DNA of 64,000 nt from assembly GCA_963826295.1 (NCBI GenBank), contig CAWGWO010000007.1, forward strand, positions 57,887 through 121,886. The letters run 5' to 3'. Of the stretch, positions 720 through 39,466 are shown piece after piece. The position numbers and the translations under genes were made by a program. Source of the stretch: an uncultured Alphaproteobacteria bacterium (GTDB lineage Bacteria; Pseudomonadota; Alphaproteobacteria; Rhizobiales; Xanthobacteraceae). Position 1 is the stretch's first letter; each line of letters begins with the position of its first letter. A model generated the notes under the pieces. The model was given only the letters and a program-made list of their open reading frames with translations, had not been told where the DNA came from and ran no database searches.

Positions 720-734
720 GGTGGGCCTTTATAG

Positions 735-783
735 TTAATGGCCGGTAAAAACTTGCCGGGCGCGAACCGGCAACAATTGCCGC
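735..783. promoter_or_regulatory. fliX-flgI intergenic control region: a CtrA-box-like element and two dyad sites of the CCGGCA-N5-TGCCGG type
   Basis: The minus strand reads TTTACCGGCCATTAAC (735..750), one mismatch from TTAA-N7-TTAAC. The dyads are CCGGTAAAAACTTGCCGG (742..759) and CCGGCAACAATTGCCGC (767..783). They lie 95-135 bp upstream of the sigma54-like promoter at 879. Confidence 0.4.
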
Positions 784-878
784 GAGCGGCAGGGAATGCT
801 TGCGGCCAGCCACGATCAAAGTCTGCAAAACGCCAAATAACGTCGCTATTTCAATAGTTTTTATGGCGAGATGTGATC

Positions 879-894
879 TGGCACGCAATTGGCA
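879..894 (+). promoter_or_regulatory. sigma54 (-24/-12) promoter candidate for flgI
   Basis: TGGCACGCAATTGGCA compared with TGGCACG-N4-TTGCW. The GG-N10-GC spacing is kept and there is one mismatch. It lies about 37 nt upstream of the ATG at 931, which is preceded by GGAG. Confidence 0.5.
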
Positions 895-930
895 ATGGAT
901 TTGGCGTCCGACCTTCTGGGGGAGCAGGAG

Positions 931-2040
931 ATGACGGGGACGCTTCGGAGCGGCCTATTTGCGCTTCTTGTCGTTACGTGCGCCGTTTCGACGGCGACGG
1001 CGACGTCGCGCATTAAAGATCTCGCTAATATCGAGGGTATCCGGCAGAATCAGTTGATCGGCTACGGCCTCGTAGTCGGGCTCAACGGCACCGGCGACAC
1101 CCTCAACAATACGCCTTTCACCAAGCAATCCTTGCAGGGCATGCTTGAGCGGCTCGGCGTCAACATCCGCGGCCAGCAGATCCGCACCGGCAACGTCGCC
1201 GCCGTTATGGTCACGGCGAATCTGCCGCCATTCGCCACCCAGGGCACCCGGATCGACGTCACCGCCTCGGCGCTGGGCGACTCCAAGAGCCTGCTCGGCG
1301 GCACGCTTCTGGTGACGCCGCTCCTCGGCGCCGACGGCAACGTCTATGCGGTCGCCCAAGGCTCGCTTGCCATTGGCGGCTTTCAGGTCGAGGGCGAAGC
1401 GGCCAAGGTCACGCGAGGCGTGCCGACTGTCGGCCGGCTGCCCAATGGCGCCATCATCGAACGCGAGATCGAGTTCTCGCTTGACACGCTGAGCCGGCTC
1501 CGGCTGTCGCTGCGCAATCCCGACTTCACCACCGCAAAGCGCATCGCCATCGCGATCAACGACTATATCGGCGCGCCGGTTGCCGAGCCGCTCGATCCTT
1601 CGACCGTGCAGCTCACGCTGCCGAAGAAATTTCCACAGAATGTGGTGGCCATGCTCACCGATATCGAGCAGCTACAGGTCGAGCCGGACGAGGCGGCGAA
1701 AATCGTCATCGATGAGCGCTCCGGCGTTATCGTCATCGGCCGCGATGTGCGCGTATCGACGGTCGCGGTGGCTCAGGGCAACCTCACCGTGACAATTTCG
1801 GAAACGCCGCAGGTCAGCCAGCCGGCACCACTGTCGCGCGGCCGCACCGTGGTGGTGCCGCGCACCCATGTCGGCGTGGTCGAGGAAGGCAAGAAGCTCG
1901 CCCTGGTCCAGGAAGGCGTGTCCTTGCAGCAGATCGTCGATGGGCTCAACGCACTCGGCATCGGCCCCCGCGATCTCATCTCCATTCTGCAAGCGATCAA
2001 AGCCGCCGGCGCCATCCAAGCAGACATCGAGGTGATGTAA
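931..2040 (+). CDS. flgI: Flagellar P-ring protein FlgI
   Basis: The ORF track gives 889..2040. I prefer the ATG at 931 because it has a GGAGCAGGAG Shine-Dalgarno sequence and position 889 lies inside the promoter motif. There is a signal peptide followed by SRIKDLANIEGIRQNQLIGYGLVVGLNGTGD, the hallmark FlgI N-terminus. Confidence 0.93.
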   Translation: MTGTLRSGLFALLVVTCAVSTATATSRIKDLANIEGIRQNQLIGYGLVVGLNGTGDTLNNTPFTKQSLQGMLERLGVNIRGQQIRTGNVAAVMVTANLPPFATQGTRIDVTASALGDSKSLLGGTLLVTPLLGADGNVYAVAQGSLAIGGFQVEGEAAKVTRGVPTVGRLPNGAIIEREIEFSLDTLSRLRLSLRNPDFTTAKRIAIAINDYIGAPVAEPLDPSTVQLTLPKKFPQNVVAMLTDIEQLQVEPDEAAKIVIDERSGVIVIGRDVRVSTVAVAQGNLTVTISETPQVSQPAPLSRGRTVVVPRTHVGVVEEGKKLALVQEGVSLQQIVDGLNALGIGPRDLISILQAIKAAGAIQADIEVM

Positions 2041-2387
2041 TGACCTTTGCCGCCGCCTCGTCGGCCGCCACAGCCGCCGAACTCAGTCAGACCATCGGCT
2101 CGATCGGGAGCGCACAGACCGCGCAAGCAAAGGCCGCCCTCGGCATCAAAGGCAAGGCGAAAGCCGCCGCCCAGCAATTCGAAGCGATGTTCCTCGATTC
2201 AATGTTCCAGCAAATGTTCACGGGCGTCGATGGCGACGGGCCGTTCGGAGGCAGCGGCGCACTGAAGGTGTGGCGGTCGATGCTCACCGATCAATACGCC
2301 AAGACATTTGCCCAGAACGGCGGCATCGGCATTGCATCTCATGTCTATGAGCAGTTGCTTAAACAGCAGGGCCTGAACCCATCATGA
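2040..2387 (+). CDS. Rod-binding protein (FlgJ N-terminal domain only, CheL-like); no muramidase domain
   Basis: 115 aa with the AAQQFEAMFLDSMFQQMF rod-binding motif. It overlaps the flgI stop (ATGA-type coupling). Confidence 0.8.
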   Translation: MTFAAASSAATAAELSQTIGSIGSAQTAQAKAALGIKGKAKAAAQQFEAMFLDSMFQQMFTGVDGDGPFGGSGALKVWRSMLTDQYAKTFAQNGGIGIASHVYEQLLKQQGLNPS

Positions 2388-2845
2388 GCAAGACAACCAC
2401 CATCGTAACCTCCGCCGAGGCGGAAGCCGCTATCGCCCAGGTGGCGCAATTGATCGAGAAGCTCACCGGCATCGTCGAGCAGGAAACCGCCCTCGTGCAT
2501 GCCGGAAAAGTTCGCAACGCCGCCGCGCTCGGCACAGCCAAGAGCGAACTCGCCGGCCAGTTGTACACCGGCGGCGAGCGGCTCAAGGCGAACGCAAAAT
2601 TTCTGATGAAAGCGGCGCCGGCGGCAGCCGCGACACTCAATCGCCTGCAAGCAAGGTTTCGCGCCGCGCTGCAAAAGAACATGATCGTGCTGGCAACCTC
2701 GCACGCAGTATCGGAGGGCATCGTGCGCCGGTTGTCCGGCGACCTCGCCCGCAAGGCCTCGCCGCAAGTCTACGGAGCGACCGGGCGCGCCGTGACGCCA
2801 AACCCGAAACACGGCAAGCCGCTCGCCATCAGCCGGACATTGTAG
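2384..2845 (+). CDS. Flagellar operon protein, FlgN-like/FlbY-like (function uncertain)
   Basis: 153 aa, helical, translationally coupled to the rod-binding gene (4-bp overlap). It occupies the same position as the third gene of alphaproteobacterial flgI operons. Confidence 0.5.
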   Translation: MSKTTTIVTSAEAEAAIAQVAQLIEKLTGIVEQETALVHAGKVRNAAALGTAKSELAGQLYTGGERLKANAKFLMKAAPAAAATLNRLQARFRAALQKNMIVLATSHAVSEGIVRRLSGDLARKASPQVYGATGRAVTPNPKHGKPLAISRTL

Positions 2846-2851
2846 GTCGGA

Positions 2852-5389
2852 TCACTCCGCGCGACTCGCCTGCGCGGCTGCATGATCGGACCGGCGCGCG
2901 ACCTCTTCAAGTTCGCAACGCACCCGCTCGACGGGATCGCTCCAGTCGCCGATTACTTTTTGCCGGAATATCCGCATGCTCGGATACCAGGGACTGTCGG
3001 TGCGATCGCGCAGCCAGCGCCAATCTGGCGAATATGGGATAAGGAGTGCCACCGCCTTGCCCATCGCCCCGGCGAGATGCGCGACTGACGTATCAACCGC
3101 GATGATAAGGTCGAGCATGGCGATGACGGCCGCCGTGTCGGAAAAGTCGGCAAATTCCTGCCCAAGCTGTGCGACGCCGTGCTCGCGCAGGATCGCAGCA
3201 TCCGCATCACTCACTGCTTTTTGCACGCTGACGAAATCAAGGCCCGGCACGGACAACACCCGCCGCAAATACTCGAGCTGCATCGAACGATTGCGGTCGT
3301 TCGAATGGACCGGGTTGCCCGCCCAGCACAATCCTATCCGTCGACGCCCGTGCTGCGGCAACCGCGGTCGCCAGGCATCGATGCGTTCGGGATATGGACA
3401 CACATAGGGAATCGTCGCCGGTATCGTTTCAAGCTTCGTGCCGAACGCCAGCGGCAAACTCAAGAGCGCGCAATGCAAATCAAAATCGGGCAGCCCATCA
3501 CCGTCGGCGAATATGGCGGAAACACCCGGCACCGAGCACATTAGCATTTTAAGCGGCGGCTGCACGGCGAGCAGCACCTTGGCGCCGCGCGCCGCGACGA
3601 GCGGCGCATAGCGCACAAACTGGAGCGTGTCGCCCAAGCCCTGCTCGGCGTGCAGCAGCACGGTCTTTCCGGTCAAGTCTTGCTGCCCGTCCCAGGCCGG
3701 CTGGGAAAAGTCGCCGCGCTGCGCCGCCAAATCCTTTCGTTTCCAGCGATACTCGTATTGCTTCCAGCCGTCGTGGTAATCGCCCATGCACAGGCGCGTG
3801 AGCGCCGCGTTGAAGTTGGCGTCGACGTTGTCCGGCTCGAGCGCCAGCGCCCGTCCATAACTTGCGAGTGCCTCCTCCATCCGCACCGACTTGAGAAACG
3901 CGTTGCCGCGATTGACATGAGCGGCGACGCCGTTCGGTTCGACGCGCAGCACCTTCTCATAACACGCGAGCGCCTCGTCGATGCGGTCGATTTCGGCAAG
4001 CGCGACGCCCCGATTGTTGAGCACGTCGGTCTGGTCGGGTTTGATCGCGAGCACCTCGTCGTAGGTCACCAATGCCTCGGCGTAGCGCTTGTCTTTGCGG
4101 AAGGCATTGCCACGGCTGACCATCGCGCCGAGATGGCCGGGGTCGCGCGTGAGCGCCCGGTCGAAGCTCGAGAGCGCGTCATCGATCCGATCGAGGTCGA
4201 GCAGCGTGGCGCCGCGATTGACGTGAACGTCAACGCGATCCGGCGCCGCCGCAAGGGCCGCATCGTAGCTTGCCAGGGCTTCCGCGTGACGGCCGAGCTT
4301 GCCGAGCACGACACCGCGGGTGTTGAGGGCGTCGGCGTCGGCTGGATCTTTCGCCAGCAGACGGTCGCACGGCGCGAGCGCCTCCTCGAAGCGCTCTAGA
4401 ACGGCTAGCGCATTGGCGCGGTTATGCAGCGCGCCGCGATGCTCCGGGTCGACCGCGAGCACGCGATCGTAGCTCTCCAGCGCCTCACCTGCCCGCTTGA
4501 GCCCAATCAACGCCAAACCGAGATTGTTGAGCGCATCCAGGCGCTGCGGCTCGATCGCGAGCGCCTCTGCAAAGCTTGCGCGCGCATCCTCGGCGCGACC
4601 AAGGCTCAGCAATGCGTTGCCGCGATTATAGTGTGCGTCTGCGTAGCCCGGATTTTCGGCGAGCGCGCGCTCGCAACTTTGCAGCGCCTCCTCGAAGCGG
4701 CCGAGCTCCGACAGCGTCACACCACGATTGTTAAGCACCTCCGGTTCTTTCGGCTCGAGGGCGAGCGCCGCATCGTAGGCGGCGAGCGCCTCATCGGGCC
4801 GATTGATCGCTCCGAGTGCAATGCCACGGCGGTTGAGCGCCTTGATGTGGCGCGGCCGCAACGCCAGCACCTTGGCGTAGCCGGCGAGCGCGTCTTGGTG
4901 GCGGCCGAGCGCGCAGAGTGTGTTGCCGCGCCGGTAAAGCGCGTCGACGTGGTCGGGCACCAGGGCGAGCGCGCGGTCGTAGCTCGCCAGCGCGTCGGCG
5001 TGCCGCCCGAGTCCTTGCAAAGCGTTGGCGCGATTATAATGCGCAGCGGCATTGTTGGCGCGCAGCGCCAGAACCCTATCGAAGCTTGTCAGCGCCTCCT
5101 GGTGACGCTTGAGCGCGTCAAGAATGACACCGTAATTTACCAGCGCGTCCGCAGATCCCGGCTGGGCTTTGAGCGCCGCCGCAACGAGGCGTAAGCCTTC
5201 GGTCGATTGGCCCTGCTGGTGCTTGAGCACGCCGCTCAGATGCAGCGCGTCGAAATTGCGGGGATCGCCGGTGAGAACCGAATCGTAGATTCGTGCGGCT
5301 TCTTCGAGACGTCCCCGCTGATGCAGGACAAGCGCCTGTTGAATGGACTGCGCCGTCTGCGGGCGCTGCGCCCTTGCCTGCTTACCCAT
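2852..5389 (-). CDS. Multi-TPR protein with a C-terminal GT9-like (heptosyltransferase-fold) glycosyltransferase domain
   Basis: About 15 tandem 34-aa TPR units (A..Y..AL...P....AL.N.G) are followed by GKTVLLHAEQGLGDTLQFVRY...IGLCWAGNP...DTAAVIAMLDLIIAVDTSVAHLAGAMGK, the GT9-type signature. The ORF track start is 5494; the ATG at 5389 (MGKQARAQ) is more plausible. Confidence 0.75.
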   Translation of the reverse strand: MGKQARAQRPQTAQSIQQALVLHQRGRLEEAARIYDSVLTGDPRNFDALHLSGVLKHQQGQSTEGLRLVAAALKAQPGSADALVNYGVILDALKRHQEALTSFDRVLALRANNAAAHYNRANALQGLGRHADALASYDRALALVPDHVDALYRRGNTLCALGRHQDALAGYAKVLALRPRHIKALNRRGIALGAINRPDEALAAYDAALALEPKEPEVLNNRGVTLSELGRFEEALQSCERALAENPGYADAHYNRGNALLSLGRAEDARASFAEALAIEPQRLDALNNLGLALIGLKRAGEALESYDRVLAVDPEHRGALHNRANALAVLERFEEALAPCDRLLAKDPADADALNTRGVVLGKLGRHAEALASYDAALAAAPDRVDVHVNRGATLLDLDRIDDALSSFDRALTRDPGHLGAMVSRGNAFRKDKRYAEALVTYDEVLAIKPDQTDVLNNRGVALAEIDRIDEALACYEKVLRVEPNGVAAHVNRGNAFLKSVRMEEALASYGRALALEPDNVDANFNAALTRLCMGDYHDGWKQYEYRWKRKDLAAQRGDFSQPAWDGQQDLTGKTVLLHAEQGLGDTLQFVRYAPLVAARGAKVLLAVQPPLKMLMCSVPGVSAIFADGDGLPDFDLHCALLSLPLAFGTKLETIPATIPYVCPYPERIDAWRPRLPQHGRRRIGLCWAGNPVHSNDRNRSMQLEYLRRVLSVPGLDFVSVQKAVSDADAAILREHGVAQLGQEFADFSDTAAVIAMLDLIIAVDTSVAHLAGAMGKAVALLIPYSPDWRWLRDRTDSPWYPSMRIFRQKVIGDWSDPVERVRCELEEVARRSDHAAAQASRAE

Positions 5390-5511
5390 GCCCAACCGAA
5401 ACCGGCACGAAAGTCGCGAAAGATCGCCTGTGCCTGCCCTGCCGCAAGGTCCGCGAAGATGGTTAATCGACCGTAAAGCGCGAGCCGTGAACACGGCCTA
5501 TTAACCCAGTG

Positions 5512-5527
5512 ATGGCATCTAGGATGC
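5512..5527 (+). promoter_or_regulatory. sigma54-like -24/-12 element upstream of the Ser/Thr-rich gene
   Basis: TGGCATCTAGGATGCA has correct GG-N10-GC spacing. Mismatches fall only at less conserved positions. It lies 27 nt upstream of the ATG at 5554. Confidence 0.4.
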
Positions 5528-5553
5528 AGTTGGCGTGGCAGAGTCAGAATTCG

Positions 5554-6366
5554 ATGAGCATCCAAAGTATTTCGTTTTATCAGCAGGACCAAAACTACTG
5601 GCAGCAGGCGCAGGCCCAAAGTCAGTCTTCTTCGGCGGATGCCTCGCTGATCAACGTGATGGCCCAGGCGGAGACGAATCTCGGGAAGGGCTTGGCTAGT
5701 ATCGCCAACGAGACTGCTTTGAAACGGGTCAATTCTGAACTGTCGGCCGCGGTGCAAAGTGTTCTGAGCGGTTCGACAAGCACTTCGACGTCGTCGACAT
5801 CCTCATCCAGCGCTTCAACCACTTCCGCTTCGAATTCAGCTGCGGCTACACCGACGCCGGCGACCGGTACGGGCACCGTGCCGCTGACGTCGAGTTCGAC
5901 GCTGTCCAGTCTGGGGATTTTGCCGGGCGGTACCTTCAGCATCGATGACGGAACCAATATCACCCAATACACGTCGACCGGTACCGATACGGTTGCCGAT
6001 CTGGTAAACGCCATCAACTCCGGCCCGGCCTTTGTTACCGCCTCGATCAACGCCAACGACAAACTCGTCATAACGGCGAGGAACACCAAGGAGATCGTTA
6101 CCGTTCAAGGCAGCGGGACCGATGCCGTCGCCCTCGGATTCGGCAACAACAACGACAGCTTTACGCCGACGACGCCTACAGCCGCCTCGACAAGTGCTTC
6201 AAGCGCATCGAGCAGCGCGTCCTCGGCAAGCTCGACTTCGTCCACGACTACGTCGAACAGCTCGTCCACTGCCGTTACATCAGTTGCCCAGGAGATTTCC
6301 AGCAGCGCCGCATCCATTCTGAGCGCAAGCGGCATCAGCGGCACCCTAGTCGATATGCTGGCGTGA
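5554..6366 (+). CDS. Ser/Thr-rich protein carrying a flagellin/hook-type central module (DUF1522-like); function unknown
   Basis: The ORF track gives 5509..6366. The start at 5554 (MSIQSISFYQQ) is inferred from the promoter position. Poly-Ser/Thr tracts flank the module LTSSSTLSSLGILPGGTFSIDDGTNITQYTSTGTDTVADLVNAINSG...GSGTDAVALGFGNNNDSFTPT. That module aligns with FlgE residues about 224-324. Confidence 0.7.
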   Translation: MSIQSISFYQQDQNYWQQAQAQSQSSSADASLINVMAQAETNLGKGLASIANETALKRVNSELSAAVQSVLSGSTSTSTSSTSSSSASTTSASNSAAATPTPATGTGTVPLTSSSTLSSLGILPGGTFSIDDGTNITQYTSTGTDTVADLVNAINSGPAFVTASINANDKLVITARNTKEIVTVQGSGTDAVALGFGNNNDSFTPTTPTAASTSASSASSSASSASSTSSTTTSNSSSTAVTSVAQEISSSAASILSASGISGTLVDMLA

Positions 6367-6373
6367 CGCGGCG

Positions 6374-7168
6374 CTAAGCGCTGGCGCGACCGAACTGCGA
6401 GGATAGATCGCCGCAAAACGTCATCGGACCGACGTGGGCGAGCTTGCTGTTGAGGTCCGCCCAGATTTCGCCGCCCATATCGGTCCAGCGCTTGCAGAAG
6501 GCGAAGTCCTCGCTGAGATAGGTGCCGTCCTCGGCGATCATGCATTCGAATAGCGCAAATCTTTTTTCGCTTGCGCTTGCCGCATCGATCGAATGGTCGC
6601 GCTTGAATTGCAGTTGCGGATAACGCGCGCACATTTTCTCCAGCGCAGCCCGCCGGATCATGAGAAAGCCGGCGCCGGCGTAGCGGACTTTGACAAATCC
6701 GCCGCTTTCGATGACGGCGCCCGGATCCTCCACCTCGACTACGTAGCTCAGCGCCGCCGCGGCCGGATTGGGACGCTCCGTCTCGATGCTTGACCTGACC
6801 TTATCCCAGTCGATCCGCTTGATCGGATAGACGGCTGCGCACATCTGCGCGCCGCATTCTATCAGGCGCAGCACCTGCTCCGGCTCGAAGCCGATGTCGG
6901 CGTCCAGGAATAACAAGTGGGTGGCAGATGCGTCGTCGAGGAATTGCGCGACCAAGCTCGCGCGCGCGCGAGTGATCAGGGCGTCGCCGTCCTTGAATAA
7001 CAGCTTGAGGTTGAAGTCACCGTAATTTCGCGCTATTGTTTGCAGCCTTAACAGCGACGCCGCGCAGAGGACCGAAATCTGGCCGCCGAAGCACGGCATC
7101 GCGACGACGAGATTGACCCGATTGGGCAAAACGGTCGCGGCCATCGCAGAGTTCACCCGACTTTGCAT
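6374..7168 (-). CDS. GT-A-like glycosyltransferase candidate (DxD motif)
   Basis: 264 aa. It contains VVAMPCFGGQI...ITRARASLVAQFL...THLLFLDADIGFEPEQVLRL...AAVYPIK, the layout of a small nucleotide-sugar transferase family. The assignment is from memory only. Confidence 0.5.
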   Translation of the reverse strand: MQSRVNSAMAATVLPNRVNLVVAMPCFGGQISVLCAASLLRLQTIARNYGDFNLKLLFKDGDALITRARASLVAQFLDDASATHLLFLDADIGFEPEQVLRLIECGAQMCAAVYPIKRIDWDKVRSSIETERPNPAAAALSYVVEVEDPGAVIESGGFVKVRYAGAGFLMIRRAALEKMCARYPQLQFKRDHSIDAASASEKRFALFECMIAEDGTYLSEDFAFCKRWTDMGGEIWADLNSKLAHVGPMTFCGDLSSQFGRASA

Positions 7169-7199
7169 TTATAGTTAATCAATAACCAACACGAACGGT

Positions 7200-7225
7200 T
7201 AAAGGCTGATTAAGCGCGCCGATAA
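7200..7225 (+). promoter_or_regulatory. sigma28 (FliA)-like promoter motif upstream of flagellin
   Basis: TAAA-N14-GCCGATAA compared with the enterobacterial TAAA-N15-GCCGATAA. It would give a leader of about 245 nt. A weaker sigma54-like AGGCAATCCTTCGGCA lies at 7369..7384. Confidence 0.3.
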
Positions 7226-7477
7226 AGCCCGCTAAATGAAAGGAAACGCTTGCGGCGCTTGCACGGCTAACATTGCGGCAGAACCAGGTCGCGAACTTGG
7301 GCAACGCCCGGAAGATCGGTCGTAATCGCGCCAACGCTGCGTAGATTTACGCGTCTTTAAACGAAATGAGGCAATCCTTCGGCAGCCGATCGGAAGGGAT
7401 CGGAAGACGCACTCGCGGGTACGGATCGTACTGCAAGTGCAAGCCAGTACGGCCTGTAACCAGAAGGGTAAAGGACT

Positions 7478-8620
7478 ATGTCTGACATCACTTTGACCTC
7501 GGGCATTCGGCAGAACTTGCTGTCCTTGCAGCAAACGTCCACCGATTTGACCACGACCCAGGAAGCGCTTGCCACCGGCAAAGCGGTTAACTCCGCCGCC
7601 GACAATCCGAGCGCCTATTTCACTTCGCAGAACCTGACCAACAGCGCCAACTCGCTCAGCGCCTTGCTCGACCAGATCGGGCAGGGCCAGCAGACGATCG
7701 ACGCGGCCACTAACGGCCTCACCGGCATCACCAGCCTGCTGCAACAGGCGTTGTCGACGGTGCAACAGGCACAGCAAGCCAGCCAGACCGCCGGTTCGAC
7801 CACCGGATCGGTCACCGTTGGCGCCTCCACCGTCGCCACAGCCGGCACGCTGAACATCCTGGTGGGCACAACCACTTATGGTGTTGCGGTATCGGTGAGC
7901 GAGACGGCGAGCGAAGTCGAAGCCGCCATCAATGCCGTCACCGGTCTCGGCAGCTCCGGCGCCGTGACCGCAAGCGACTCGGGCGGAGAAATCGTCCTCA
8001 CCGCCAACTCGGGCGAGACAAATTTCTCGGTCGTCGCCAACGCGACGTCAGCCACCCTCGGCCTGACCAGCAGCTCCACCGCCAACAACGCGGTTTACGG
8101 GACCAGCTCGACGCGCACCACGTTACAGACCAACTACAACGGCCTGCTGACGCAGATCAATCAGCTCGCCTCGGACTCCGGCTATAACGGCGTCAACCTG
8201 CTTGCCGGTAACAATCTGACCATCGACTTCAATTCCACCGGCTCAAGCTCGCTGACCATCCAAGGCGTGACGTTCAACGCCTCGGGCCTGGGTTTGTCGA
8301 GCGTCACGGGTGCCGTAGCGGGATCCTTCCAGGACAATACCGGACTCGCAAGCATCTCCACCGACATCAACGACGCGATCACTTCGGTGCAGACCCAGAC
8401 CGAGACGTTCGGCACCAACTCGGGCGTCATCGGCACCCGGCAGACGTTCGAAACCAACATGATCAACACGTTGCAGACCGGCGCCAGCAACCTCGTGGTA
8501 GCTGACCAGAATGAGGAAAGCGCCGATCTGCTCACCGAGCAGACCCAGCAACAGCTCGAAATCTCCGCGCTGTCTATCGCCAATCAAGCGAACCAGTCGG
8601 TGCTTAAGCTGTTCAGCTAA
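7478..8620 (+). CDS. Flagellin
   Basis: The N-terminus is ITLTSGIRQNLLSLQ...LATGK.VNSAADNPSAYF and the C-terminus is LVVADQNEESADLLTEQTQQQLEISALSIANQANQSVLKLF. The central Thr/Ser-rich module lies at 7844..8074. Confidence 0.92.
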   Translation: MSDITLTSGIRQNLLSLQQTSTDLTTTQEALATGKAVNSAADNPSAYFTSQNLTNSANSLSALLDQIGQGQQTIDAATNGLTGITSLLQQALSTVQQAQQASQTAGSTTGSVTVGASTVATAGTLNILVGTTTYGVAVSVSETASEVEAAINAVTGLGSSGAVTASDSGGEIVLTANSGETNFSVVANATSATLGLTSSSTANNAVYGTSSTRTTLQTNYNGLLTQINQLASDSGYNGVNLLAGNNLTIDFNSTGSSSLTIQGVTFNASGLGLSSVTGAVAGSFQDNTGLASISTDINDAITSVQTQTETFGTNSGVIGTRQTFETNMINTLQTGASNLVVADQNEESADLLTEQTQQQLEISALSIANQANQSVLKLFS

Positions 8621-8648
8621 CCCTTCCTGAACAGGCCTTTGGCAAAGG

Positions 8649-8682
8649 CGGCGGGGCGGAAACGCCCCGCTGCTTTCTTTTG
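8649..8682 (+). terminator. Rho-independent terminator after flagellin
   Basis: GCGGGGCG-GAAA-CGCCCCGC followed by TGCTTTCTTTT. Confidence 0.7.
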
Positions 8683-8797
8683 GAGTATTGCTTCGTTTGG
8701 TGTCAACGATCCCGAGTATTGCGATCCGCTACGTAATGTTAACGAGCGGAAGGTACAAATTGCTAACGATAACGAGCAAGTAGTCGGAGTTGTTGAG

Positions 8798-9163
8798 ATG
8801 GATTATGCGAGCAAGGCGTACGCCAAGGTTGCCAAGGAAACGGCGGCACCGCGCGAGCTGGAAGCGAGCTTGCTGCTGAAAGCGGCGGCGAAATTGCAGG
8901 CGGTCCGCGATGCGTGGCGTGACAAGCCCGCCGGCCTGCATGATGCGCTCATGTATAATCGCCGGCTCTGGATGGTGTTCATCGACGCGGTGCAACACGA
9001 AGGCAACAAGCTGCCGGTCATGGTTCGCGACAATCTCACCAAGCTCGGCGCTTTCGTCATCGGCGAGACCTTCGCACTGATGACCGAGCCGAAGCCGAAC
9101 CACCTCGACTCTATTATCAAGATCAATCGCGGCATCGCCGCCGGGCTGCGCGGCAAGAATTAA
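8798..9163 (+). CDS. flaF: Flagellar biosynthesis regulator FlaF
   Basis: Internal ATG of ORF 8639..9163. The sequence is MDYASKAYAKVAKETAAPRELEASLLLKAAAKLQ...NRRLWMVF, typical of FlaF. Confidence 0.8.
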   Translation: MDYASKAYAKVAKETAAPRELEASLLLKAAAKLQAVRDAWRDKPAGLHDALMYNRRLWMVFIDAVQHEGNKLPVMVRDNLTKLGAFVIGETFALMTEPKPNHLDSIIKINRGIAAGLRGKN

Positions 9164-9196
9164 CGGAGCGGCCGACGGCGGTTATTCGTTGTCCGC

Positions 9197-10708
9197 CTAA
9201 CCGCTCACCGCCGAGAGGTAGTTGACGAGGCTCATCTGCGCTAACCGCGCGGTGACCGACATCGAAGCCGACAGATTGTTCTGCAGCGTCAGAATATCCT
9301 CGCCGATCTGGTTCTGATTCACGCCTTCGATGCCTTGCAGCATGTCCTGTAGGGTGGTCTGGGTCTGCGTGTTCATCGTCGTCGCGTTAGCGACTGTCGT
9401 TTGCGCGTTGGCGAGGCCGGCCTCAATGTCGCTGATGGATTGCGTGCCGGATGTTCCGCTCAGATTCTGTTGCACGCTTTGGCAGAGCGCTTCGTAACTC
9501 GCCTGCGCATTCGGATCGCTAGCCGAATAGGTGGTCGCGGCAAGCACCGCGACGTTGGCGAGCAACGAAGTGATCGCCGGCTCGGTCGCTCGCATGCCGT
9601 AATCAACCGTCGTCGACTGACCGACTTGGGCCGAGGCGGTCTCCGACGCCGGCGTCGAGCCGTTCTCGCCGGTATACCAAAGCACCGTGTTCGCCGCCGT
9701 ACCGTCGACCAAGGACGTAGCCGTGTAGGGCGAGCCGGAAATGACTTGTGGGGGATCGGAGAAGAAGTTGTTGGCTGCGGCAATGGCGGATGCGGCCGGC
9801 AGCGCGGTTTGCGCCAGGTTCGACACGGCGGTGGTCAAAGACGTCTGTAGATTAGCGGCGGTGTCGGCCGCCGTCGCGCCAATTGTGAACTGATCGGTGC
9901 CCGGCGGCGAGGCCGTGGTCGCCTGCAAGGTGATTTGCTGGCTGGAGCCGTCGGGCAGTGTGAGGTCGAAGGTGATCGAATCGCCGGCATTCGGATTGGA
10001 TCCGAGATCGACCGAGATCGCCGGCGGCGACGAGCCGGAAGGGCCGCTCACCGTAGCACCGGTAAGACTTGAAGTGACGCCGGCGAGCTGAAATCCGAAC
10101 GGCGAGTTCGCCGCGTCTTCGCTGAGTGTGACGGTTGTGGAGCCGGACGTATTCTGGACGCTCAGGCGGCCGAGACCGTCGGAGCCCTGGTCGGCCTCCA
10201 GGCGCTGCGCGATCACCTGGGTCAGGCCGGCTTGCGTCCCAGTGCCGTTGAGGATGGCGCTGGTCGAAGCAACCGAGGGGCTGCTCACGGCGCTGCCCGA
10301 GAACAGATAACTGCCGCCGACCTGCGTATTGAGCAGCGACAGGATCTGGTCGAGATAGCTCGCGGCCGAGGCTTGCGTCGTGGTCTGACCAGTATTGTCG
10401 AGCGTGAACGAACCCTGCTGCGTGATCGCATCCTGGACATCGGTGCTGGCGCTGCCGATCTCGCTGAGCACCGATTGCGCGACGGTCAACGTCGTGCCGA
10501 TGGTATTAGCGTTGTTGGTGTAACCGCTGATATCCGCCAGTTGCGCGCTGAGTTGCAGGGCGAGCCCGGCCTGCGAGCCAAGCCCGGAATAGGTCGTTGC
10601 AGCCTCGCCGGTGCCGATCTGTTGGCTCAGCGTGTTGAGCTGGCTCATCATGTTATTCTGCGCCAGCAAATTGGTCGCCGTGATCGACCCGGGTCCGGTG
10701 ATACTCAT
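9197..10708 (-). CDS. flgL: Flagellar hook-associated protein 3 FlgL (long form, 503 aa)
   Basis: Flagellin-like N- and C-terminal helices (C-terminus LQNNLSASMSVTARLAQMSLVNYL). It sits directly downstream of flgK with a TAATG overlap. Confidence 0.8.
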   Translation of the reverse strand: MSITGPGSITATNLLAQNNMMSQLNTLSQQIGTGEAATTYSGLGSQAGLALQLSAQLADISGYTNNANTIGTTLTVAQSVLSEIGSASTDVQDAITQQGSFTLDNTGQTTTQASAASYLDQILSLLNTQVGGSYLFSGSAVSSPSVASTSAILNGTGTQAGLTQVIAQRLEADQGSDGLGRLSVQNTSGSTTVTLSEDAANSPFGFQLAGVTSSLTGATVSGPSGSSPPAISVDLGSNPNAGDSITFDLTLPDGSSQQITLQATTASPPGTDQFTIGATAADTAANLQTSLTTAVSNLAQTALPAASAIAAANNFFSDPPQVISGSPYTATSLVDGTAANTVLWYTGENGSTPASETASAQVGQSTTVDYGMRATEPAITSLLANVAVLAATTYSASDPNAQASYEALCQSVQQNLSGTSGTQSISDIEAGLANAQTTVANATTMNTQTQTTLQDMLQGIEGVNQNQIGEDILTLQNNLSASMSVTARLAQMSLVNYLSAVSG

Positions 10709-12570
10709 TACGTCCCCACTTGCAGCAACGTCGCCATCAGGTCCTGGATGGTCGTCATCACGCGTGCATTGGCTCCATAGGCGTTCTGCAGCGAGATAAG
10801 GTTCGACATTTCGGTATCGATATTGACCCCGGACTGATTGTTGAAGCTTTGCTGCAGCGTGCTCAGCACGGTGTCCTGGCCTTCCTGCAGGTTGGTGGCG
10901 GCGTCCGCGGCCTGACTCTGCTGGCTGACCACCTGGCTTAAATAATTTGTCAACGTGCCGCTATACGGCGCTGACGAACTGCCGATGCCCGTCGATGGCG
11001 AATAGGTCAGTGAGGCGTTGGTCAATTGATTGAGGATGAAATCCGGTCGCGTTGGATCCCCGCTTGACGTGGAGGATGCGTACGCGACCAAGCTCGACGG
11101 CGAGGCGACGATTGCGGGATTGACCTCGATGCTTCCCGCCAAGCCCGTTGTCTGCGAGCCGCCGGCTGTGATCGCGCCGGTGATCGATTGGGTTCCGTCG
11201 GTGAACAACTGAAGCTGGGACGAGCCGCTCGTGAGCGAGGTCACGGTCGAAGTCGCCGACAACGAATTCACCACGTTGCCGGTGCCGTTGTTGAGTACTT
11301 GCAACACCGTGCCGGACGGGTTGGAGAATTGCAGGTTCGATCCGAACGCGGAATTGAGCTGCGAGACGACGGAACTCATGCCGCCGGATAAATTGACGCC
11401 GATGATTTGATTGTTGGAATTAGGCGGCGAGGTTTGCAAAGGCAGCGAACCGCCGGCGCCGAGCGCTTCAATAGTGACCGTATGCTGCACGTTGTTGGAA
11501 TCGGTGTAGGTCAACTGCACCGAATTGCCAGGCGACAGGGAGCTGACATCCACGCCGTATCCGGATTGCGAGCCGGACGTGACCGCGGTGCCGCTCGTCG
11601 TCTGGTTCGACAACGCCTGCGACATTTGATTGGCGAATTCGTCGAGCTGGCTCTGCGCCTGCGGCAGGATGGTGTCGCGCATCTGCAAGTACGCGCCGAT
11701 CTCGCCTGACTGGATGGCGTTGGTGGCGATCAGATCGGTACTGGTGCCGCTCGGCGAAACAAGCGTGATGGTGCCCGCGCCGTCTTCGCTCGAATCGGCA
11801 CTCCATTGGGAGGTCGCCGTCAGCGTGCCGACGTCGTCGAAGTCGAGCTGCGAGGCGTTCGCGCCGGCTACGAGCTGCTGGCCGGTGCTGGTAAACAGGG
11901 AAACCTGGTTGTTGGAATTCTGCACGACGTTGACATTCATCATCTGCGTAACCTGGGTAATATCCTGGTCGCGCTGGTCCTCAAGCGTCGCAGTGGAGCT
12001 GTCAGATAAGTTCGCGCCTTCGAGCTGCTGGTTGATCTGCGCGATTTGCTGTAACGCCGTGTTCACTGTTTGCACGCCGCTCGCGATACCCTGCTCGGCT
12101 TGGGTGCGTAGCTGCTGGATGGTCGTGGTCATGGAATTGAGGTTCTGCGCCACGGCCTGAGCGGCGGACACGACCCCGGTTTGTGCGGACGTCGAGCTCG
12201 GGCTCGTTGCGAGTGTTTGCAGCGCGGTTGTCAGATTTCCGTAGATCGCATCGAACGACGTCGCCGAGCCCGGCGTGCCGTAGATTTCCTGAAGCTGCTG
12301 GTAAATCTGCGAGCTGGTATCGGCATAAGAATCGCCGGACGTTTCCGTCCACAATTGACTTTGCAGCAAGGTGTTGAGATTGCGATTGATGCCGTCCGTG
12401 TCGACACTGCTGCCGGCTTGGCCGGAGGTGGCGACCGCGGATTGATTGAGCGTTTCATCGACGTAGCCGGCCGTGTTGGCGTTCGCCACGTTTCCGGCGA
12501 TCACCGAGAGACCTTGCTGGGTCACATTGACGCCAGCCAAGGCGGCGGATAACGCCTGAGAGAGGCCCAT
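10708..12570 (-). CDS. flgK: Flagellar hook-associated protein 1 FlgK
   Basis: The N-terminus is MGLSQALSAALAGVNVTQQGLSVIAGNVANANTAGY. The C-terminus is GVNIDTEMSNLISLQNAYGANARVM. Confidence 0.92.
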   Translation of the reverse strand: MGLSQALSAALAGVNVTQQGLSVIAGNVANANTAGYVDETLNQSAVATSGQAGSSVDTDGINRNLNTLLQSQLWTETSGDSYADTSSQIYQQLQEIYGTPGSATSFDAIYGNLTTALQTLATSPSSTSAQTGVVSAAQAVAQNLNSMTTTIQQLRTQAEQGIASGVQTVNTALQQIAQINQQLEGANLSDSSTATLEDQRDQDITQVTQMMNVNVVQNSNNQVSLFTSTGQQLVAGANASQLDFDDVGTLTATSQWSADSSEDGAGTITLVSPSGTSTDLIATNAIQSGEIGAYLQMRDTILPQAQSQLDEFANQMSQALSNQTTSGTAVTSGSQSGYGVDVSSLSPGNSVQLTYTDSNNVQHTVTIEALGAGGSLPLQTSPPNSNNQIIGVNLSGGMSSVVSQLNSAFGSNLQFSNPSGTVLQVLNNGTGNVVNSLSATSTVTSLTSGSSQLQLFTDGTQSITGAITAGGSQTTGLAGSIEVNPAIVASPSSLVAYASSTSSGDPTRPDFILNQLTNASLTYSPSTGIGSSSAPYSGTLTNYLSQVVSQQSQAADAATNLQEGQDTVLSTLQQSFNNQSGVNIDTEMSNLISLQNAYGANARVMTTIQDLMATLLQVGT

Positions 12571-12636
12571 TGCTCTAGCCGTCCGCGCGGCTTATCGGTT
12601 GCGGCCGCAAAGCCTGCCGCTCCTCGTTCAACCGCT

Positions 12637-14625
12637 TCACTGAATCACTTGCAGCAAGCTCTGAATCATTTGGTCCGCGGTCGACATCACGCGGGCGTTG
12701 GCCGAATAGGCCTGCTGCGCCACGATCAACTGGCTGAACTGGGTGGCGATGTCGACGTTCGAGGCTTCGAGCGAGCTGCCGACGACGGTGCCGGTTGCGC
12801 CGTAGATCGGCGGCCCAGAGTCGGCGGTGGCTTCGTATGCCTGGCCGGCGATTGCCTGCAAAGCATTCTGGCCGTTGAACGTCGCCAGCGTGATCTGCGC
12901 CAAAGGAATGGTCTGGCCGTTCGAGAACGTGCCGGTGATTTGGTTCTGGCCATCAACGGCGACTGATTCCAATTGTCCGGCGGCATAGCCGTTTTGCTGC
13001 AATTGGGTGACCTGTGCCGCGCCGCTTGTATCGGCGAATTGCGTCAACCCGTTGGTGCCGAAATTAAGCTGGATGCTGCCGAGCGAGTCACCATTCACGG
13101 TGAGATTCGAGATCGTCATATTGGAAATCGCCGGGCTCAGCTCGCCGCTCGAATTGAACGTGAACGTCTGGCCGGTATTCTGCCACTCTGCTTCGGTGCC
13201 GGTCGCGCTGGAGTTGCTCTGATAGAACAGCTGCCATGTGCCGCTTGCGGATTTGGCCCAGCGGAACTGCACGTTCACCGGATTGCCTTCGGAGTCATAG
13301 GCGGTGAGAGACCCACCGTCGACCGACTGGCTGGTGAAGGTCGACGAATCGTTGGCGATGACGGTGCCGTTGGCCGGCAGTGCCGTGAGACTTTGAATGC
13401 CAAATTTGCTGGCCGCCGCCGTACCGCCGACGGTGAGGCTCGCGGTTGGGCTGTTCGCCGTCAACGCGACGTCGCCGTTCGCGGTATTCACCGTTCCGGT
13501 CACGCCCGTCAGGCCCTGGATCGCGGTCTGCAATTCGGCAAGGGTCGCGACCTGGCCGGAGCCGGTGCCGAAGGTGATGGTTTGCGTGCCGCCACCCGCG
13601 ACCGTGACCGTCATGGTCTGGCCCTGCGCGACGGCGCTTTGGGTCAGCAGGTTGGTCGGATTAAATGAATTCGCGCCGGCGGCGAACCCGATGGCGGCAG
13701 CGTCGCTGCCGGTGCCGCCTACGGTAATCGACGCAATTCCATTGGTGCCGGTGAGAGCCAGATCGCCGCTGCTGTTGAGCGCCGCGGAAACGTCCAGCGT
13801 GCCGCCGGTATTCGCAGCGTTAATCGCAGTGACCAGATCACCGACGGTGTCGGTTCCGGTCGCGGTGTAAGTGTAAGTTGAATTGATTCCATCATCGATG
13901 GTGACGGTATCTCCGGTGGTGATCCCGAGCGATGCGAGCGTCGTGGCGCTCGTTAGGCCGACCGAACCGGTGCCGCTCGCAACGGCATCGGGCTCCAGTG
14001 TTGCGCCCGTGCCTTGGATTTCCGCCGCGGTCGGAGCGCCGGCGAGCGGATTGGCTTCAAAATCGCTTGGCACCAACGTGCCGGAAGTTGGCGAGCTTGG
14101 CAGGTTCGCCTGATACTGGATGGTAGTCGTTTCTTGGGCCGGCACGAAATCGTCGTCGAATTGTAAGACTTGCGGCGAGCTGCCGACCGGATTCCCGGTG
14201 GCCGCATCGATCGGAATCCCCATCAGATAATAGCCGGAGCCGTTGACGAGGTAGCCGTTCGAATCGAGCGAAAAATCGCCGGCTTGAGTGTAAGCATTGA
14301 CGCCGCTGAAGGTCGGCTCATTGTCGACTTCGCCGGTCGGTTGCGCTACCACGAACCAGCCGTTGCCCTGGATGGCCATGTCGGTTGAGACCGACGTACT
14401 TTCGATCGTGCCTGCCACCGTGTTGGTGGAGACGGAGCTGGCGGTGACGCCGCTCGACGTCTGCTGATTTGCCGCCGCGGCGGAGACGAGATCCTGGAAG
14501 GCGGTGTCGGTTTCCTTAAAGCCCGTGGTTTGCGAGTTGGCGATGTTGCCGGAAATGTTTTGCAGCGCAAATGACTGAGCTTGCAGACCAGCCACAGCGG
14601 TGGTCAATGCATCGAAAATACCCAT
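12637..14625 (-). CDS. flgE: Flagellar hook protein FlgE (662 aa, with inserted repeat modules)
   Basis: The N-terminus is MGIFDALTTAVAGLQAQSFALQNISGNIANSQTTGFK. The C-terminus is SNVDIATQFSQLIVAQQAYSANARV. The central insertion lies at about 13390..13956. Confidence 0.93.
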   Translation of the reverse strand: MGIFDALTTAVAGLQAQSFALQNISGNIANSQTTGFKETDTAFQDLVSAAAANQQTSSGVTASSVSTNTVAGTIESTSVSTDMAIQGNGWFVVAQPTGEVDNEPTFSGVNAYTQAGDFSLDSNGYLVNGSGYYLMGIPIDAATGNPVGSSPQVLQFDDDFVPAQETTTIQYQANLPSSPTSGTLVPSDFEANPLAGAPTAAEIQGTGATLEPDAVASGTGSVGLTSATTLASLGITTGDTVTIDDGINSTYTYTATGTDTVGDLVTAINAANTGGTLDVSAALNSSGDLALTGTNGIASITVGGTGSDAAAIGFAAGANSFNPTNLLTQSAVAQGQTMTVTVAGGGTQTITFGTGSGQVATLAELQTAIQGLTGVTGTVNTANGDVALTANSPTASLTVGGTAAASKFGIQSLTALPANGTVIANDSSTFTSQSVDGGSLTAYDSEGNPVNVQFRWAKSASGTWQLFYQSNSSATGTEAEWQNTGQTFTFNSSGELSPAISNMTISNLTVNGDSLGSIQLNFGTNGLTQFADTSGAAQVTQLQQNGYAAGQLESVAVDGQNQITGTFSNGQTIPLAQITLATFNGQNALQAIAGQAYEATADSGPPIYGATGTVVGSSLEASNVDIATQFSQLIVAQQAYSANARVMSTADQMIQSLLQVIQ

Positions 14626-38169: not shown

Positions 38170-38179
38170 CGAATAAACC

Positions 38180-39435: not shown

Positions 39436-39466
39436 CAACGCCCCCTTGCGCATCGCGGCTCGCCCT

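Follow-up and report, generated by a model that had tools for sequence, protein, structure and literature searches.

A stand-alone flagellar outer-domain protein encoded between two glycosyltransferase-like genes in uncultured Xanthobacteraceae-like bacteria

Within a flagellar gene cluster of the 64-kb stretch of DNA analysed here (the window), we found a gene for a 270-aa protein that consists of a stand-alone outer domain and conserved termini, joined by two long disordered Ser/Thr-rich linkers. As judged from sequence, this gene almost always sits between two glycosyltransferase-like genes and near flagellin. The reading that we favor, with a probability of roughly 0.4, is that the protein would be O-glycosylated and would leave the cell through the flagellar type III system. 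A conserved protein built on an outer domain alone, with its own termini, mucin-like linkers and two dedicated-looking glycosyltransferase neighbors, would be new.

Table 1. Positions in the window of the 270-aa protein gene, its segments and the related or neighboring features.
Feature	Position (nt)	Strand	Evidence or remark
FlmG-like protein, 880 aa, 11 TPR repeats and C-terminal GT-B-like domain	2852..5494	-	Pfam TPR families
CtrA-like box TTAATCGACCGTAAA	5463..5477		Divergent intergenic region, TPR glycosyltransferase gene / 270-aa protein gene
CDS of 270-aa protein, stop codon included	5554..6366	+	ORF list; homologs
N-terminal region, residues 1-74	5554..5775	+	Conserved; family HMM region, 132.7 bits
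Ser/Thr-rich linker 1, residues 75-99	5776..5850	+	73% S+T in 270-aa protein
Flagellin_IN-type outer-domain module, residues 100-206	5851..6171	+	PF07196, AF2, Foldseek
Ser/Thr-rich linker 2, residues 207-239	6172..6270	+	68% S+T in 270-aa protein
C-terminal tail, residues 240-270, ending SSAASILSASGISGTLVDMLA	6271..6363	+	Conserved
264-aa conserved protein, predicted GT-A glycosyltransferase fold	6374..7168	-	AF2, Foldseek
Flagellin gene, 380 aa	7478..8620	+	
Central domain of flagellin, distant module copy	7793..8074	+	hhalign 93.8%, E 1.8e-7
flgE gene	12637..14625	-	
FlgE degenerate module copy 2, about residues 338-414	13384..13614	-	HMM independent E 0.23; BLASTP second segment E 0.54
FlgE module copy 1, FlgE residues 215-324	13654..13983	-	Module HMM E 6e-29; BLASTP E 1e-20

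The reading frame from the ATG at 5554 to the stop codon at 6366 encodes 270 aa. This ATG was preferred over an upstream GTG at 5509 because the homologs begin at the equivalent methionine (MSIQS or MSIGS). The original prediction had counted from that GTG, so that its residue numbers for the module (125-221) had to be abandoned, while its nucleotide coordinates (5881-6171) stand. The N-terminal region carries the motif SFYQQDQNYW, followed by amphipathic helices around an invariant K45-G46, and AF2 predicted a helix at residues 8-74 with low confidence (pLDDT about 55). Both linkers had an AF2 pLDDT below 50. Across the family they are 59–69% Ser/Thr and variable in length, linker 1 spanning 15–42 aa (median 69% S+T) and linker 2 spanning 26–63 aa. 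No DNA tandem repeats encoding the Ser/Thr tracts were found, and hypermutable repeats were rejected as their source on that ground. The C-terminal tail was the most conserved segment, with a mean pairwise identity of 76% over residues 250-270 and invariant L256, G260, G263, L265, and L269. Mean pairwise identity was 62–65% in the N-terminal region and spanned 62–76% over the N-terminal region, module and tail together, compared with 32–41% in the linkers. By this measure the N-terminal region, the module and the tail are each under purifying constraint, whilst the linkers drift.

The original prediction was that the protein shares a module with the hook protein FlgE and that this module is a DUF1522-type repeat. 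The sharing was confirmed, but the family assignment was wrong, the module being Flagellin_IN (PF07196). Using hmmscan, PF07196 matched residues 127-176 at 26.0 bits with the whole protein and at 28.4 bits with the isolated module, both above the gathering score of 22.7 bits, and the characteristic “AIN” of Flagellin_IN is found in the module as LVNAINSG. DUF1522 was not reported by hmmscan for the 270-aa protein, FlgE or flagellin at E up to 0.01, and the isolated module at E up to 10 returned PF07196 and a chance DUF6252 hit alone. BLASTP aligned residues 103-265 of the protein with residues 216-379 of the window FlgE (E 1e-20, 41% identity over 168 aa). A module HMM, built from 79 family members, recovered FlgE residues 215-324 (E 6e-29). 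Over the module, identity to the FlgE insert of the same genome was about 53%, in keeping with the “roughly half” of aligned positions first estimated. The more distant resemblance to the center of flagellin was also upheld, as hhalign aligned module residues 103-199 with flagellin residues 106-199 (nt 7793-8074; probability 93.8%, E 1.8e-7), a segment overlapping the 7844-8074 proposed earlier. The flagellin center was missed by BLASTP (E 1.5) and by the search of the module HMM against sequences. On sequence comparison, the module is homologous to FlgE and, distantly and by profile-profile comparison only, to the flagellin center. We take it to be a paralog of the hook protein's outermost insert.

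The AF2 model of the module (pLDDT about 90) has the order beta-beta-beta-alpha-beta-beta-beta-alpha, and Foldseek superposed it on flagellin outer domains (D2/D3-type) and on FliD D2-D3. The module is predicted to be a genuine, confidently folded flagellar outer-domain fold. Unlike many exposed flagellin domains, it is not hypervariable. The superposition on FliD D2-D3 heads (5xlj, 5h5t; target-normalized TM 0.41–0.43) would suit a minimal cap or scaffold, a functional analog of FliD or FlgD that would be exported, would oligomerize by its N-terminal helix and would place the module where the hook or filament grows, at the distal tip. Flagellin_IN is a motif typical of FliD proteins (Pfam description), and a long amphipathic N-terminal helix is predicted. 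No FliD-type gene was found in the cluster or anywhere in the 64-kb window; one may lie elsewhere in the genome. The flagellar type of the lineage is reported to lack FliD, and a study of Phaeobacter inhibens likewise reports an alphaproteobacterial flagellum without FliD (PMC12363192). However, flagellin outer domains were matched equally well by Foldseek, at the sequence level the protein resembles neither FliD_N nor FliD_C nor any D0 segment, and a profile search of PDB sequences with the 270-aa protein gave no meaningful match and no FliD. Because the family belongs to a single uncultured clade, while P. inhibens, from another order, also lacks FliD, the protein would not be a general solution to that lack. 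We consider such a cap very unlikely.

Among complete FlgE genes in related loci, 8/17 encoded short forms of 446–486 aa in which both module copies are missing, and the 270-aa protein was kept there. Among close relatives, FlgE gains or loses the module as a two-copy cassette, which is a clear example of hook domain shuffling. Some flagellins and an 800-aa FlgL-like protein carry the module as well. In a neighbor-joining tree the modules of the 270-aa proteins and those of FlgE formed distinct clades, and identity to the FlgE of the same genome (44–53%) equalled identity across genomes; gene conversion or co-evolution between the module and the FlgE module of its own genome was rejected on these grounds. 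Dependence on a module-bearing FlgE was likewise rejected, given the retention of the protein beside short FlgE. An earlier suggestion, that the protein acts as a decoy or chaperone for the domain shared with FlgE, is weakened by the lack of the module in 8/17 FlgE proteins and by the absence of within-genome co-evolution.

The terminal helices of flagellin and hook protein are missing from the 270-aa protein, as had been predicted. PF07196 was the sole Pfam match of the whole protein in hmmscan, NCBIfam gave nothing, and the isolated N- and C-termini matched nothing in Pfam even at E 10. Flagellin_N/C, Flg_bb_rod and Flg_bbr_C were absent from the protein; the window FlgE, FlgK, FlgL, and flagellin carry such D0/D1 hits. 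There was also no Pfam match to FliD_N or FliD_C, and no Flg_hook (T3S4, FliK), FlgD or FlgM domain by hmmscan or NCBIfam. The protein starts with MSI..., like the N-termini of flagellin and FlgL, and its “SIAN” and “IAN..T..KR” resemble flagellin C-terminal and rod N-terminal motifs. Degenerate D0 termini were nevertheless rejected, as hhalign of the termini against the N- and C-terminal D0 segments of FlgE, FlgK, FlgL, and flagellin, in all combinations and with cross-comparisons included, gave a probability of 1.2% or less. The C-terminal tail and terminal motifs were sought in the other ORFs of 81 loci and had no match, so a common recognition signal in the proteins of the cluster was rejected. 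By inspection the N-terminus is polar and has no Sec-like hydrophobic core, in agreement with the original remark that no Sec signal peptide is obvious.

The family is narrow and confined to uncultured soil Xanthobacteraceae-like bacteria. It comprises 683 homologs of 255–310 aa and 166 of 1.84 billion cluster representatives, and tblastn against plasmids gave no match. The 80 loci with the gene all come from MAGs, mostly labeled Xanthobacteraceae, Hyphomicrobiales or uncultured Alphaproteobacteria. Named family members are all called “hypothetical protein,” apart from spurious pipeline labels such as the “trimeric autotransporter adhesin” occasionally given by JGI pipelines. Literature searches on the motif, on similar proteins and on serine-rich flagellar secreted proteins returned no description of the family. 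Tandem paralogs of the gene were present at three loci. Some related loci also contain repeated flagellin-homologous ORFs.

Gene order in nearly all of the 80 loci was fliX-flgI-flgJ-unk153-TPRGT-TARGET-GT-A-flagellin-flaF-...-flgL-flgK-flgE, where TARGET is the gene for the 270-aa protein, and this near-invariant synteny inside the flagellar cluster argues for a flagellar role. One homolog (L009) lies in a non-flagellar neighborhood. This copy, the adhesin label and the behavior of the module as a mobile cassette (carried by long FlgE, some flagellins and the 800-aa FlgL-like protein, absent from short FlgE) would be expected of a protein with no specific flagellar function. It could be a Ser/Thr-rich glycoprotein, secreted or on the cell surface, such as an adhesin, that is specific to the lineage, borrowed its outer domain and lies in the cluster by chance, or else a by-product of FlgE domain shuffling. 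We find this improbable. Synteny is kept in 75–78 of the 80 loci though copies in different lineages are merely 39–70% identical, and three separate segments are under purifying constraint. Neither a Sec or Tat signal nor other secretion-system genes near the gene were found, and the upstream motif class of the gene is also present in the fliX/flgI and flagellin intergenic regions.

The FlmG-like TPR glycosyltransferase gene adjoins the 270-aa protein gene in 78/80 loci and is divergently transcribed. Its true start in the window is probably the ATG at 5389, and the C-terminal 332 aa of its product gave a weak Glyco_transf_9 match (E 4.7e-4). On the other side, the GT-A-fold gene is adjacent in 75/80 loci. 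Its product, which had no Pfam or NCBIfam match, has 2842 homologs and an invariant D89-A-D91, and its AF2 model (pLDDT 72, pTM 0.73) was matched by Foldseek to the LH3 glycosyltransferase domain (E 3e-6), STIV A197 and GlfT2.

Between the two divergent genes, the CtrA-like box of the window has one mismatch to TTAA-N7-TTAA. A TTAA-N7-T[AG]AA box about 80–145 nt upstream of the start codon was found in 48/78 loci, compared with 0.08 expected per 250 nt, and a CtrA-like box within 200 nt on both strands in 46/78 loci, compared with 1/21 for flgE. The box was detected in only about 60% of loci. The gene it serves may be the divergent one for the glycosyltransferase and not that of the 270-aa protein. 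In Caulobacter, flmG and the regulatory flagellin gene fljJ are both CtrA-activated (PMC7591256). A candidate sigma-54 promoter just upstream of the ATG (TGGCAT-N5-ATGCA at 5513-5528) was not conserved (1/77 loci) and was rejected as chance or lineage-specific; at a looser threshold a sigma-54 site was seen in 3/78 loci, compared with 21/21 for flgE. Rfam and tRNA scans of the window returned nothing.

The composition of the 270-aa protein (7.8% charged residues, pI 4.1, no Cys and no His) is indistinguishable from that of the exported FlgE, FlgK, FlgL, and flagellin of the cluster (7.2–7.9% charged residues, pI 4.1) and unlike that of non-exported neighbors (13–26% charged residues). Cys was absent throughout the family (0/79 members). 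The axial-like composition and the two flanking glycosyltransferase genes lend indirect support to the suggestion, made at the outset, of a type III substrate or surface decoration, although the compositional likeness partly follows from carrying an axial-protein domain.

In the export reading, where glycosylation, export and docking are the steps that we infer, a CtrA-type promoter would drive transcription of the gene together with the genes for flagella and glycosylation. The Ser/Thr tracts would be O-glycosylated in the cytoplasm by the FlmG-like TPR enzyme, the GT-A-fold enzyme or both, and the protein would exit the cell via the flagellar type III export apparatus. Without D0/D1 it would be unable to enter the axial helical lattice. 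It could then become an extracellular accessory or decorating glycoprotein, docked through the outer-domain module or the conserved termini, or it might simply be released. FlmG, which contains TPR repeats, O-glycosylates flagellin on Ser/Thr in the cytoplasm, ahead of export (PMC7591256). Counting against the export reading are the strong conservation of SFYQQDQNYW, the low-confidence N-terminal helix, the non-hypervariable module, the neighborhood of L009, and the CtrA-like box, which is present in about 60% of loci and possibly belongs to the divergent gene. Flagellar export signals are poorly conserved; because its conservation is unusually strong for such a signal, SFYQQDQNYW looks more like a specific partner-binding site. 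It seems improbable that a glycosylated outer domain without an axial core is exported by the flagellar type III system to sit on the outside of the hook or filament, or to cap the tip in place of the missing FliD. If true, this would be an unrecognized class of flagellar component, a detachable layer by which the flagellar surface could be changed with the axial proteins unaltered.

The main rival explanation, possible but doubtful in our view, is a cytoplasmic adaptor or regulator of flagellar glycosylation or of an assembly checkpoint. The conserved termini would bind one or both glycosyltransferases (the FlmG-like TPR enzyme, the GT-A enzyme) or the flagellin-control proteins FlaF/FlbT, and, for substrates that carry the module (flagellin, long-form FlgE), the protein would present, compete for or time their modification or translation. 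Export might remove it afterwards, as happens with Caulobacter FljJ, and it would be a cis-encoded specificity or checkpoint factor, like GlfM for Maf-2 in role, not fold. TPR domains often bind short terminal peptides; the motif at the extreme N-terminus and the C-terminal tail are of this kind, and their conservation is strong. The module is common to the presumed glycosylation substrates, and the divergent arrangement with the TPR glycosyltransferase gene (78/80 loci), across a common intergenic region with a conserved CtrA-like box, also fits an adaptor. So do the CtrA activation of both flmG and fljJ in Caulobacter (PMC7591256) and the precedent of GlfM as a small cis-encoded specificity factor in flagellin glycosylation (bioRxiv 10.1101/2023.12.03.569772). 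However, the composition is like that of exported axial proteins and unlike that of cytoplasmic neighbors, and long poly-Ser/Thr linkers are unusual for cytoplasmic adaptors. FlmG-type enzymes and the GT-A-fold protein, with its 2842 homologs, are also far more widespread than the family, which is limited to a narrow clade.

Should the protein be exported and decorate the flagellum, it would represent a new type of flagellar component, and flagellar glycosylation systems would gain a new class of substrate; an adaptor would offer a new way to programme substrate choice in FlmG-type O-glycosylation. The impact of either is limited by the confinement of the family to uncultured soil Xanthobacteraceae-like bacteria.

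In all Flagellin_IN carriers known to us, the module is set between D0/D1 coiled-coil termini that drive export and polymerization, and to our knowledge hook and filament outer domains have until now been reported as insertions in self-assembling axial subunits. The 270-aa protein is like these carriers (FlgE, flagellin, FliD, FlgK/FlgL) in its PF07196 domain, with about 53% identity to its own FlgE insert, but has no D0/D1; in their place are an N-terminal region and a C-terminal tail, both novel, along with two poly-Ser/Thr linkers. It is like the FliD cap in that the module fold matches the D2-D3 head and the IN motif is typical of FliD, but differs in size (270 aa, compared with about 375–630 aa for the solved caps matched by Foldseek), in its narrow clade and in the lack of FliD_N/FliD_C.

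The neighboring 880-aa protein resembles Caulobacter FlmG by layout, with an N-terminal TPR part and a C-terminal GT-B-like domain, and the CtrA-like box in the promoter region of its gene recalls the CtrA control of flmG (PMC7591256). It differs in length (880 aa vs 596 aa), the 270-aa protein gene has a further enzyme, of GT-A fold, on its other side, and the FlmG study mentions no companion of the 270-aa kind (PMC7591256). The 270-aa protein is also like GlfM, a small conserved protein coded beside a flagellin glycosyltransferase, and under the adaptor hypothesis GlfM could be its functional analog. However, GlfM is a predicted four-helix bundle with neither the outer-domain module nor Ser/Thr linkers (bioRxiv 10.1101/2023.12.03.569772), and no sequence or fold relationship was found between the two.

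The 270-aa protein is flagellum-linked and shares part of an axial protein, in which it is like Caulobacter FljJ and Campylobacter FlaC/FspA. FlaC/FspA have a part in common with an axial protein, leave the cell through the flagellar apparatus and do not build the filament. FljJ is a regulatory flagellin that is CtrA-controlled and exported by the flagellar apparatus, with no filament-building role (PMC7591256). These proteins keep D0/D1 and lose or shorten the outer domain, whereas the 270-aa protein is the reverse.

The gene of the 270-aa protein probably starts at the ATG at 5554, since its homologues start at the equivalent methionine (MSIQS or MSIGS). An in-frame GTG at 5509 would yield 285 aa, and it was from this codon that the original prediction had numbered the residues. 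The gene is part of a flagellar sub-cluster spanning 300-14625, and no further flagellar genes were found in the rest of the window, which held genes of ordinary metabolism and regulators (e.g. methylmalonyl-CoA mutase, class II ribonucleotide reductase and spermidine synthase). Long ORFs without a Pfam match at E 1e-4 were seen outside the cluster at 19023-20750 (+), 37819-38583 (+), 38617-39453 (-), 46470-47261 (-), 49072-50418 (-) and 58249-59679 (-), some of which may be spurious overlapping frames in GC-rich sequence. Within the cluster, the 153-aa gene was translationally coupled behind flgI and the FlgJ-like gene; its product had no Pfam or NCBIfam match. Its position, kept in 65/80 related loci, is presumably that of flbY in the Caulobacter flgI-cheL-flbY operon.

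Genes of the flagellar sub-cluster in order, regions of the 270-aa protein, and putative upstream sites (window nucleotides unless marked as residues)
Feature	Position	Strand	Details
fliX		-	first in the cluster
flgI		+	
FlgJ-like rod-binding protein gene		+	
153-aa protein gene	2384-2845	+	
880-aa TPR protein gene		-	11 TPR repeats
270-aa protein gene	5554-6366	+	270 codons
N-terminal region	residues 1-74		near-invariant SFYQQDQNYW motif, then amphipathic helices around invariant K45-G46
Linker 1	residues 75-99		disordered; 69% Ser/Thr (family median); 15-42 aa
Module	residues 100-206		beta-beta-beta-alpha-beta-beta-beta-alpha; pLDDT ~90; 63% identity
Linker 2	residues 207-239		disordered; 59% Ser/Thr (family median); 26-63 aa
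C-terminal tail	residues 240-270		ends ...SSAASILSASGVSGTLVDMLA; most conserved part, 76% identity over 250-270
264-aa protein gene	6374-7168	-	
380-aa flagellin gene		+	
flaF		+	
flgL		-	
flgK		-	
flgE	12637-14625	-	
CtrA-like box	735-749		fliX-flgI intergenic
CtrA-like box	5463-5477		TPR gene-270-aa gene intergenic
CtrA-like box	7199-7213		264-aa gene-flagellin intergenic; perfect TTAA-N7-TTAA
CtrA-like box	7346-7360		264-aa gene-flagellin intergenic
Sigma-54-like site	5513-5528		TGGCATCTAGGATGCA; 26 nt upstream of the 270-aa gene
Sigma-54-like site	14706-14721	-	TGGCACGGAGCTTGCT; 96 nt upstream of flgE

BLASTP aligned the 270-aa protein with the FlgE of the window at E 1e-20 (41% identity over 168 aa), and an HMM of the module, built from 79 family members, matched FlgE residues 215-324 at E 6e-29, the two modules being ~53% identical. 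This bore out the original prediction of a shared module, and the same HMM picked up a degenerate second copy at FlgE residues ~338-414. The predicted resemblance to the flagellin centre was missed by BLASTP and HMM-versus-sequence searches but supported by profile-profile comparison (hhalign probability 93.8%, E 1.8e-7; residues 103-199 against flagellin residues 106-199, nt 7793-8074). Pfam placed the module in Flagellin_IN (PF07196), above the gathering score, and not in DUF1522 as had been proposed. Whereas four nearby axial proteins matched Flagellin_N/C, Flg_bb_rod or Flg_bbr_C in Pfam, the 270-aa protein did not; its isolated termini had no Pfam match at E 10, and their hhalign probability against the D0 segments of FlgE, FlgK, FlgL and flagellin was at most 1.2% in every combination. 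The observation of a flagellar module without axial termini was thus confirmed, with its domain name and residue numbering corrected. Lacking the terminal helical assembly segments (D0/D1), the protein should be unable to enter the axial lattice.

An alignment of 79 homologues, an AlphaFold2 model and per-region statistics gave a five-part anatomy. The N-terminal region was helical in the model, at a pLDDT of only ~55, with 62-65% mean pairwise identity, and no DNA tandem repeats encoding the linkers were found. Foldseek matched the modelled module to the outer domains of Vibrio cholerae FlaA/FlaD in the PDB (E ~1e-4), with further matches to Helicobacter pylori FlaB, Pseudomonas FliC D2/D3 and FliD D2-D3 heads. 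This similarity to FliD, which has been reported absent from an alphaproteobacterial flagellum, would suit a FliD-like cap; we consider such a role very unlikely for a protein that has no FliD terminal domain and a narrow clade distribution.

A word-indexed search gave 683 relatives, all ~255-310 aa; those with a name were called 'hypothetical protein', a handful of spurious pipeline labels aside. Among 1.84 billion cluster representatives, an exhaustive profile search gave only 166 matches, ~25 of them full length and the others fragments or module-bearing FlgE, flagellin and FlgL-like proteins. Among the last, a 494-aa flagellin (P0225) carried one module copy and an 800-aa FlgL-like protein (P0206) three. 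Scanning one genome per GTDB species yielded 80 loci, all from metagenome-assembled genomes and none from a cultured species; with few exceptions their label was Xanthobacteraceae, Hyphomicrobiales or uncultured Alphaproteobacteria. The cluster order was that of the window, with the gene adjoining that of the TPR protein in 78/80 loci, the 264-aa protein in 75/80 and flagellin in 73/80; given this conserved synteny, we regard it as unlikely that the protein lacks a flagellar role. Tandem paralogues occurred in three loci (L012 9090-10768, L035 9090-10768 and L034 9992-11733), each copy retaining the N-terminal region, module and C-terminal tail. One full-length member (L009 9962-10861) lay far from flagellar genes, among neighbours including a sulfatase-like protein, a membrane protein, a SET-domain-like protein and a histidine kinase, and may be a second, unlinked copy. 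The family member P0077 bears a precomputed accession, PF27961.1, absent from the Pfam version searched, so a very recent Pfam release may already have a family covering part of the protein. The module belongs to a known family, but the libraries and literature searched held no description of the architecture, in which an outer domain that lacks axial termini is combined with new conserved ends and mucin-like linkers and is encoded between two glycosyltransferase-like genes. The protein is real, conserved and structurally unusual, and its family is confined to uncultured bacteria.

The 17 complete FlgE genes of the related loci fell into two classes among close relatives, nine long (660-712 aa, module present; among them L005, L007, L011, L022, L024, L032, L037 and L075, the window's FlgE being of this kind) and eight short (446-486 aa, module absent; L003, L006, L008, L014, L028, L029, L060 and L080), with conserved parts 64-80% identical. 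The difference of ~216 aa is the size of the two-copy module insert, which as a cassette has evidently been acquired or lost by the hook outer domain. A neighbour-joining tree placed the FlgE modules in one clade apart from all modules of the 270-aa family, and identity between the two within a genome (44-53%) was no higher than across genomes; the two are thus ancient paralogues evolving independently. The 270-aa protein was retained in all genomes with short FlgE (8/8) and so does not depend on a module-bearing hook, which makes the originally suggested role as decoy or chaperone of the domain in FlgE less likely. Flagellins of the related loci also came in two sizes (370-385 aa and 505-619 aa), with extra IN-module copies in the longer class (e.g. 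L061 2687-4588, E 8e-7).

The sigma-54-like site upstream of the 270-aa gene matched 9/11 consensus positions and was rejected as its promoter, being conserved in 1/77 related loci. Compared by gene, sigma-54-like sites preceded flgE in 21/21 loci and the 270-aa gene in 3/78. CtrA-like boxes (TTAA-N7-T[AG]AA; expected by chance at 0.08 per 250 nt) preceded the start codon of the 270-aa gene by ~80-145 nt in 48/78 loci. The by-gene counts for these boxes were 46/78 for this gene, 59-60/60 for the fliX/flgI region, 66/73 for the flagellin upstream region shared with the 264-aa gene and 1/21 for flgE; together with the sigma-54-like counts, they separate two regulatory classes. The initial 15 kb of the window held no more than four such boxes, all of them in the intergenic regions before the 270-aa gene, at fliX/flgI and before flagellin. 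A CtrA-type box before flagellin, a late gene, was unexpected. That at 5463-5477, within a divergent promoter region, could serve the 270-aa gene or the TPR gene.

With 7.8% charged residues, a pI of 4.1, and no Cys or His, the protein resembles the exported FlgE, FlgK, FlgL and flagellin of its cluster (7.2-7.9%, pI 4.1); Cys was absent from all family members checked. Charged residues made up 18-26% of FliX, FlgI, FlaF, the TPR enzyme and the GT-A-fold (264-aa) protein, 19.6% of the 153-aa protein, 13.0% of the FlgJ-like protein and 10.8% of the N-terminal region alone (21.6% Asn/Gln). The best-fitting reading, to which we give a probability of roughly 0.4, is that the protein is expressed along with the flagellar and glycosylation genes, that the flanking enzymes would O-glycosylate its Ser/Thr tracts, and that the flagellar type III apparatus would export it; outside, it would dock as a decorating or otherwise accessory glycoprotein, or else be released. 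Its composition and linkers sit poorly with a cytoplasmic adaptor or checkpoint factor acting on the glycosyltransferases or FlaF/FlbT; that role is favoured by the strongly conserved terminal motifs, by the gene's divergent orientation to the TPR gene and by GlfM as a precedent, yet seems to us somewhat doubtful.

The 264-aa protein is highly conserved and probably starts at a downstream codon, which would make it 256 aa long. It had 2842 homologues and an invariant D-A-D motif, and no Pfam or NCBIfam family. Its AlphaFold2 model (pLDDT 72, pTM 0.73) matched GT-A glycosyltransferases, among them the LH3 glycosyltransferase domain (E 3e-6), STIV A197 and GlfT2. Since its gene mostly adjoins that of flagellin in the loci, the protein may represent an unannotated family of flagellar glycosylation enzymes. 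Given this GT-A match and the FlmG-like layout of the 880-aa protein, glycosyltransferase-like genes stand on both sides of the 270-aa gene. The C-terminal third of the 880-aa protein gave a weak Glyco_transf_9 match (E 4.7e-4), and its arrangement of a TPR N-terminus and a C-terminal GT-B-like domain is like that of Caulobacter FlmG, in which the N-terminal TPR domain binds flagellin and the GT-B domain is C-terminal; CtrA activates flmG in Caulobacter, as it does fljJ, the gene of a regulatory flagellin (PMC7591256).
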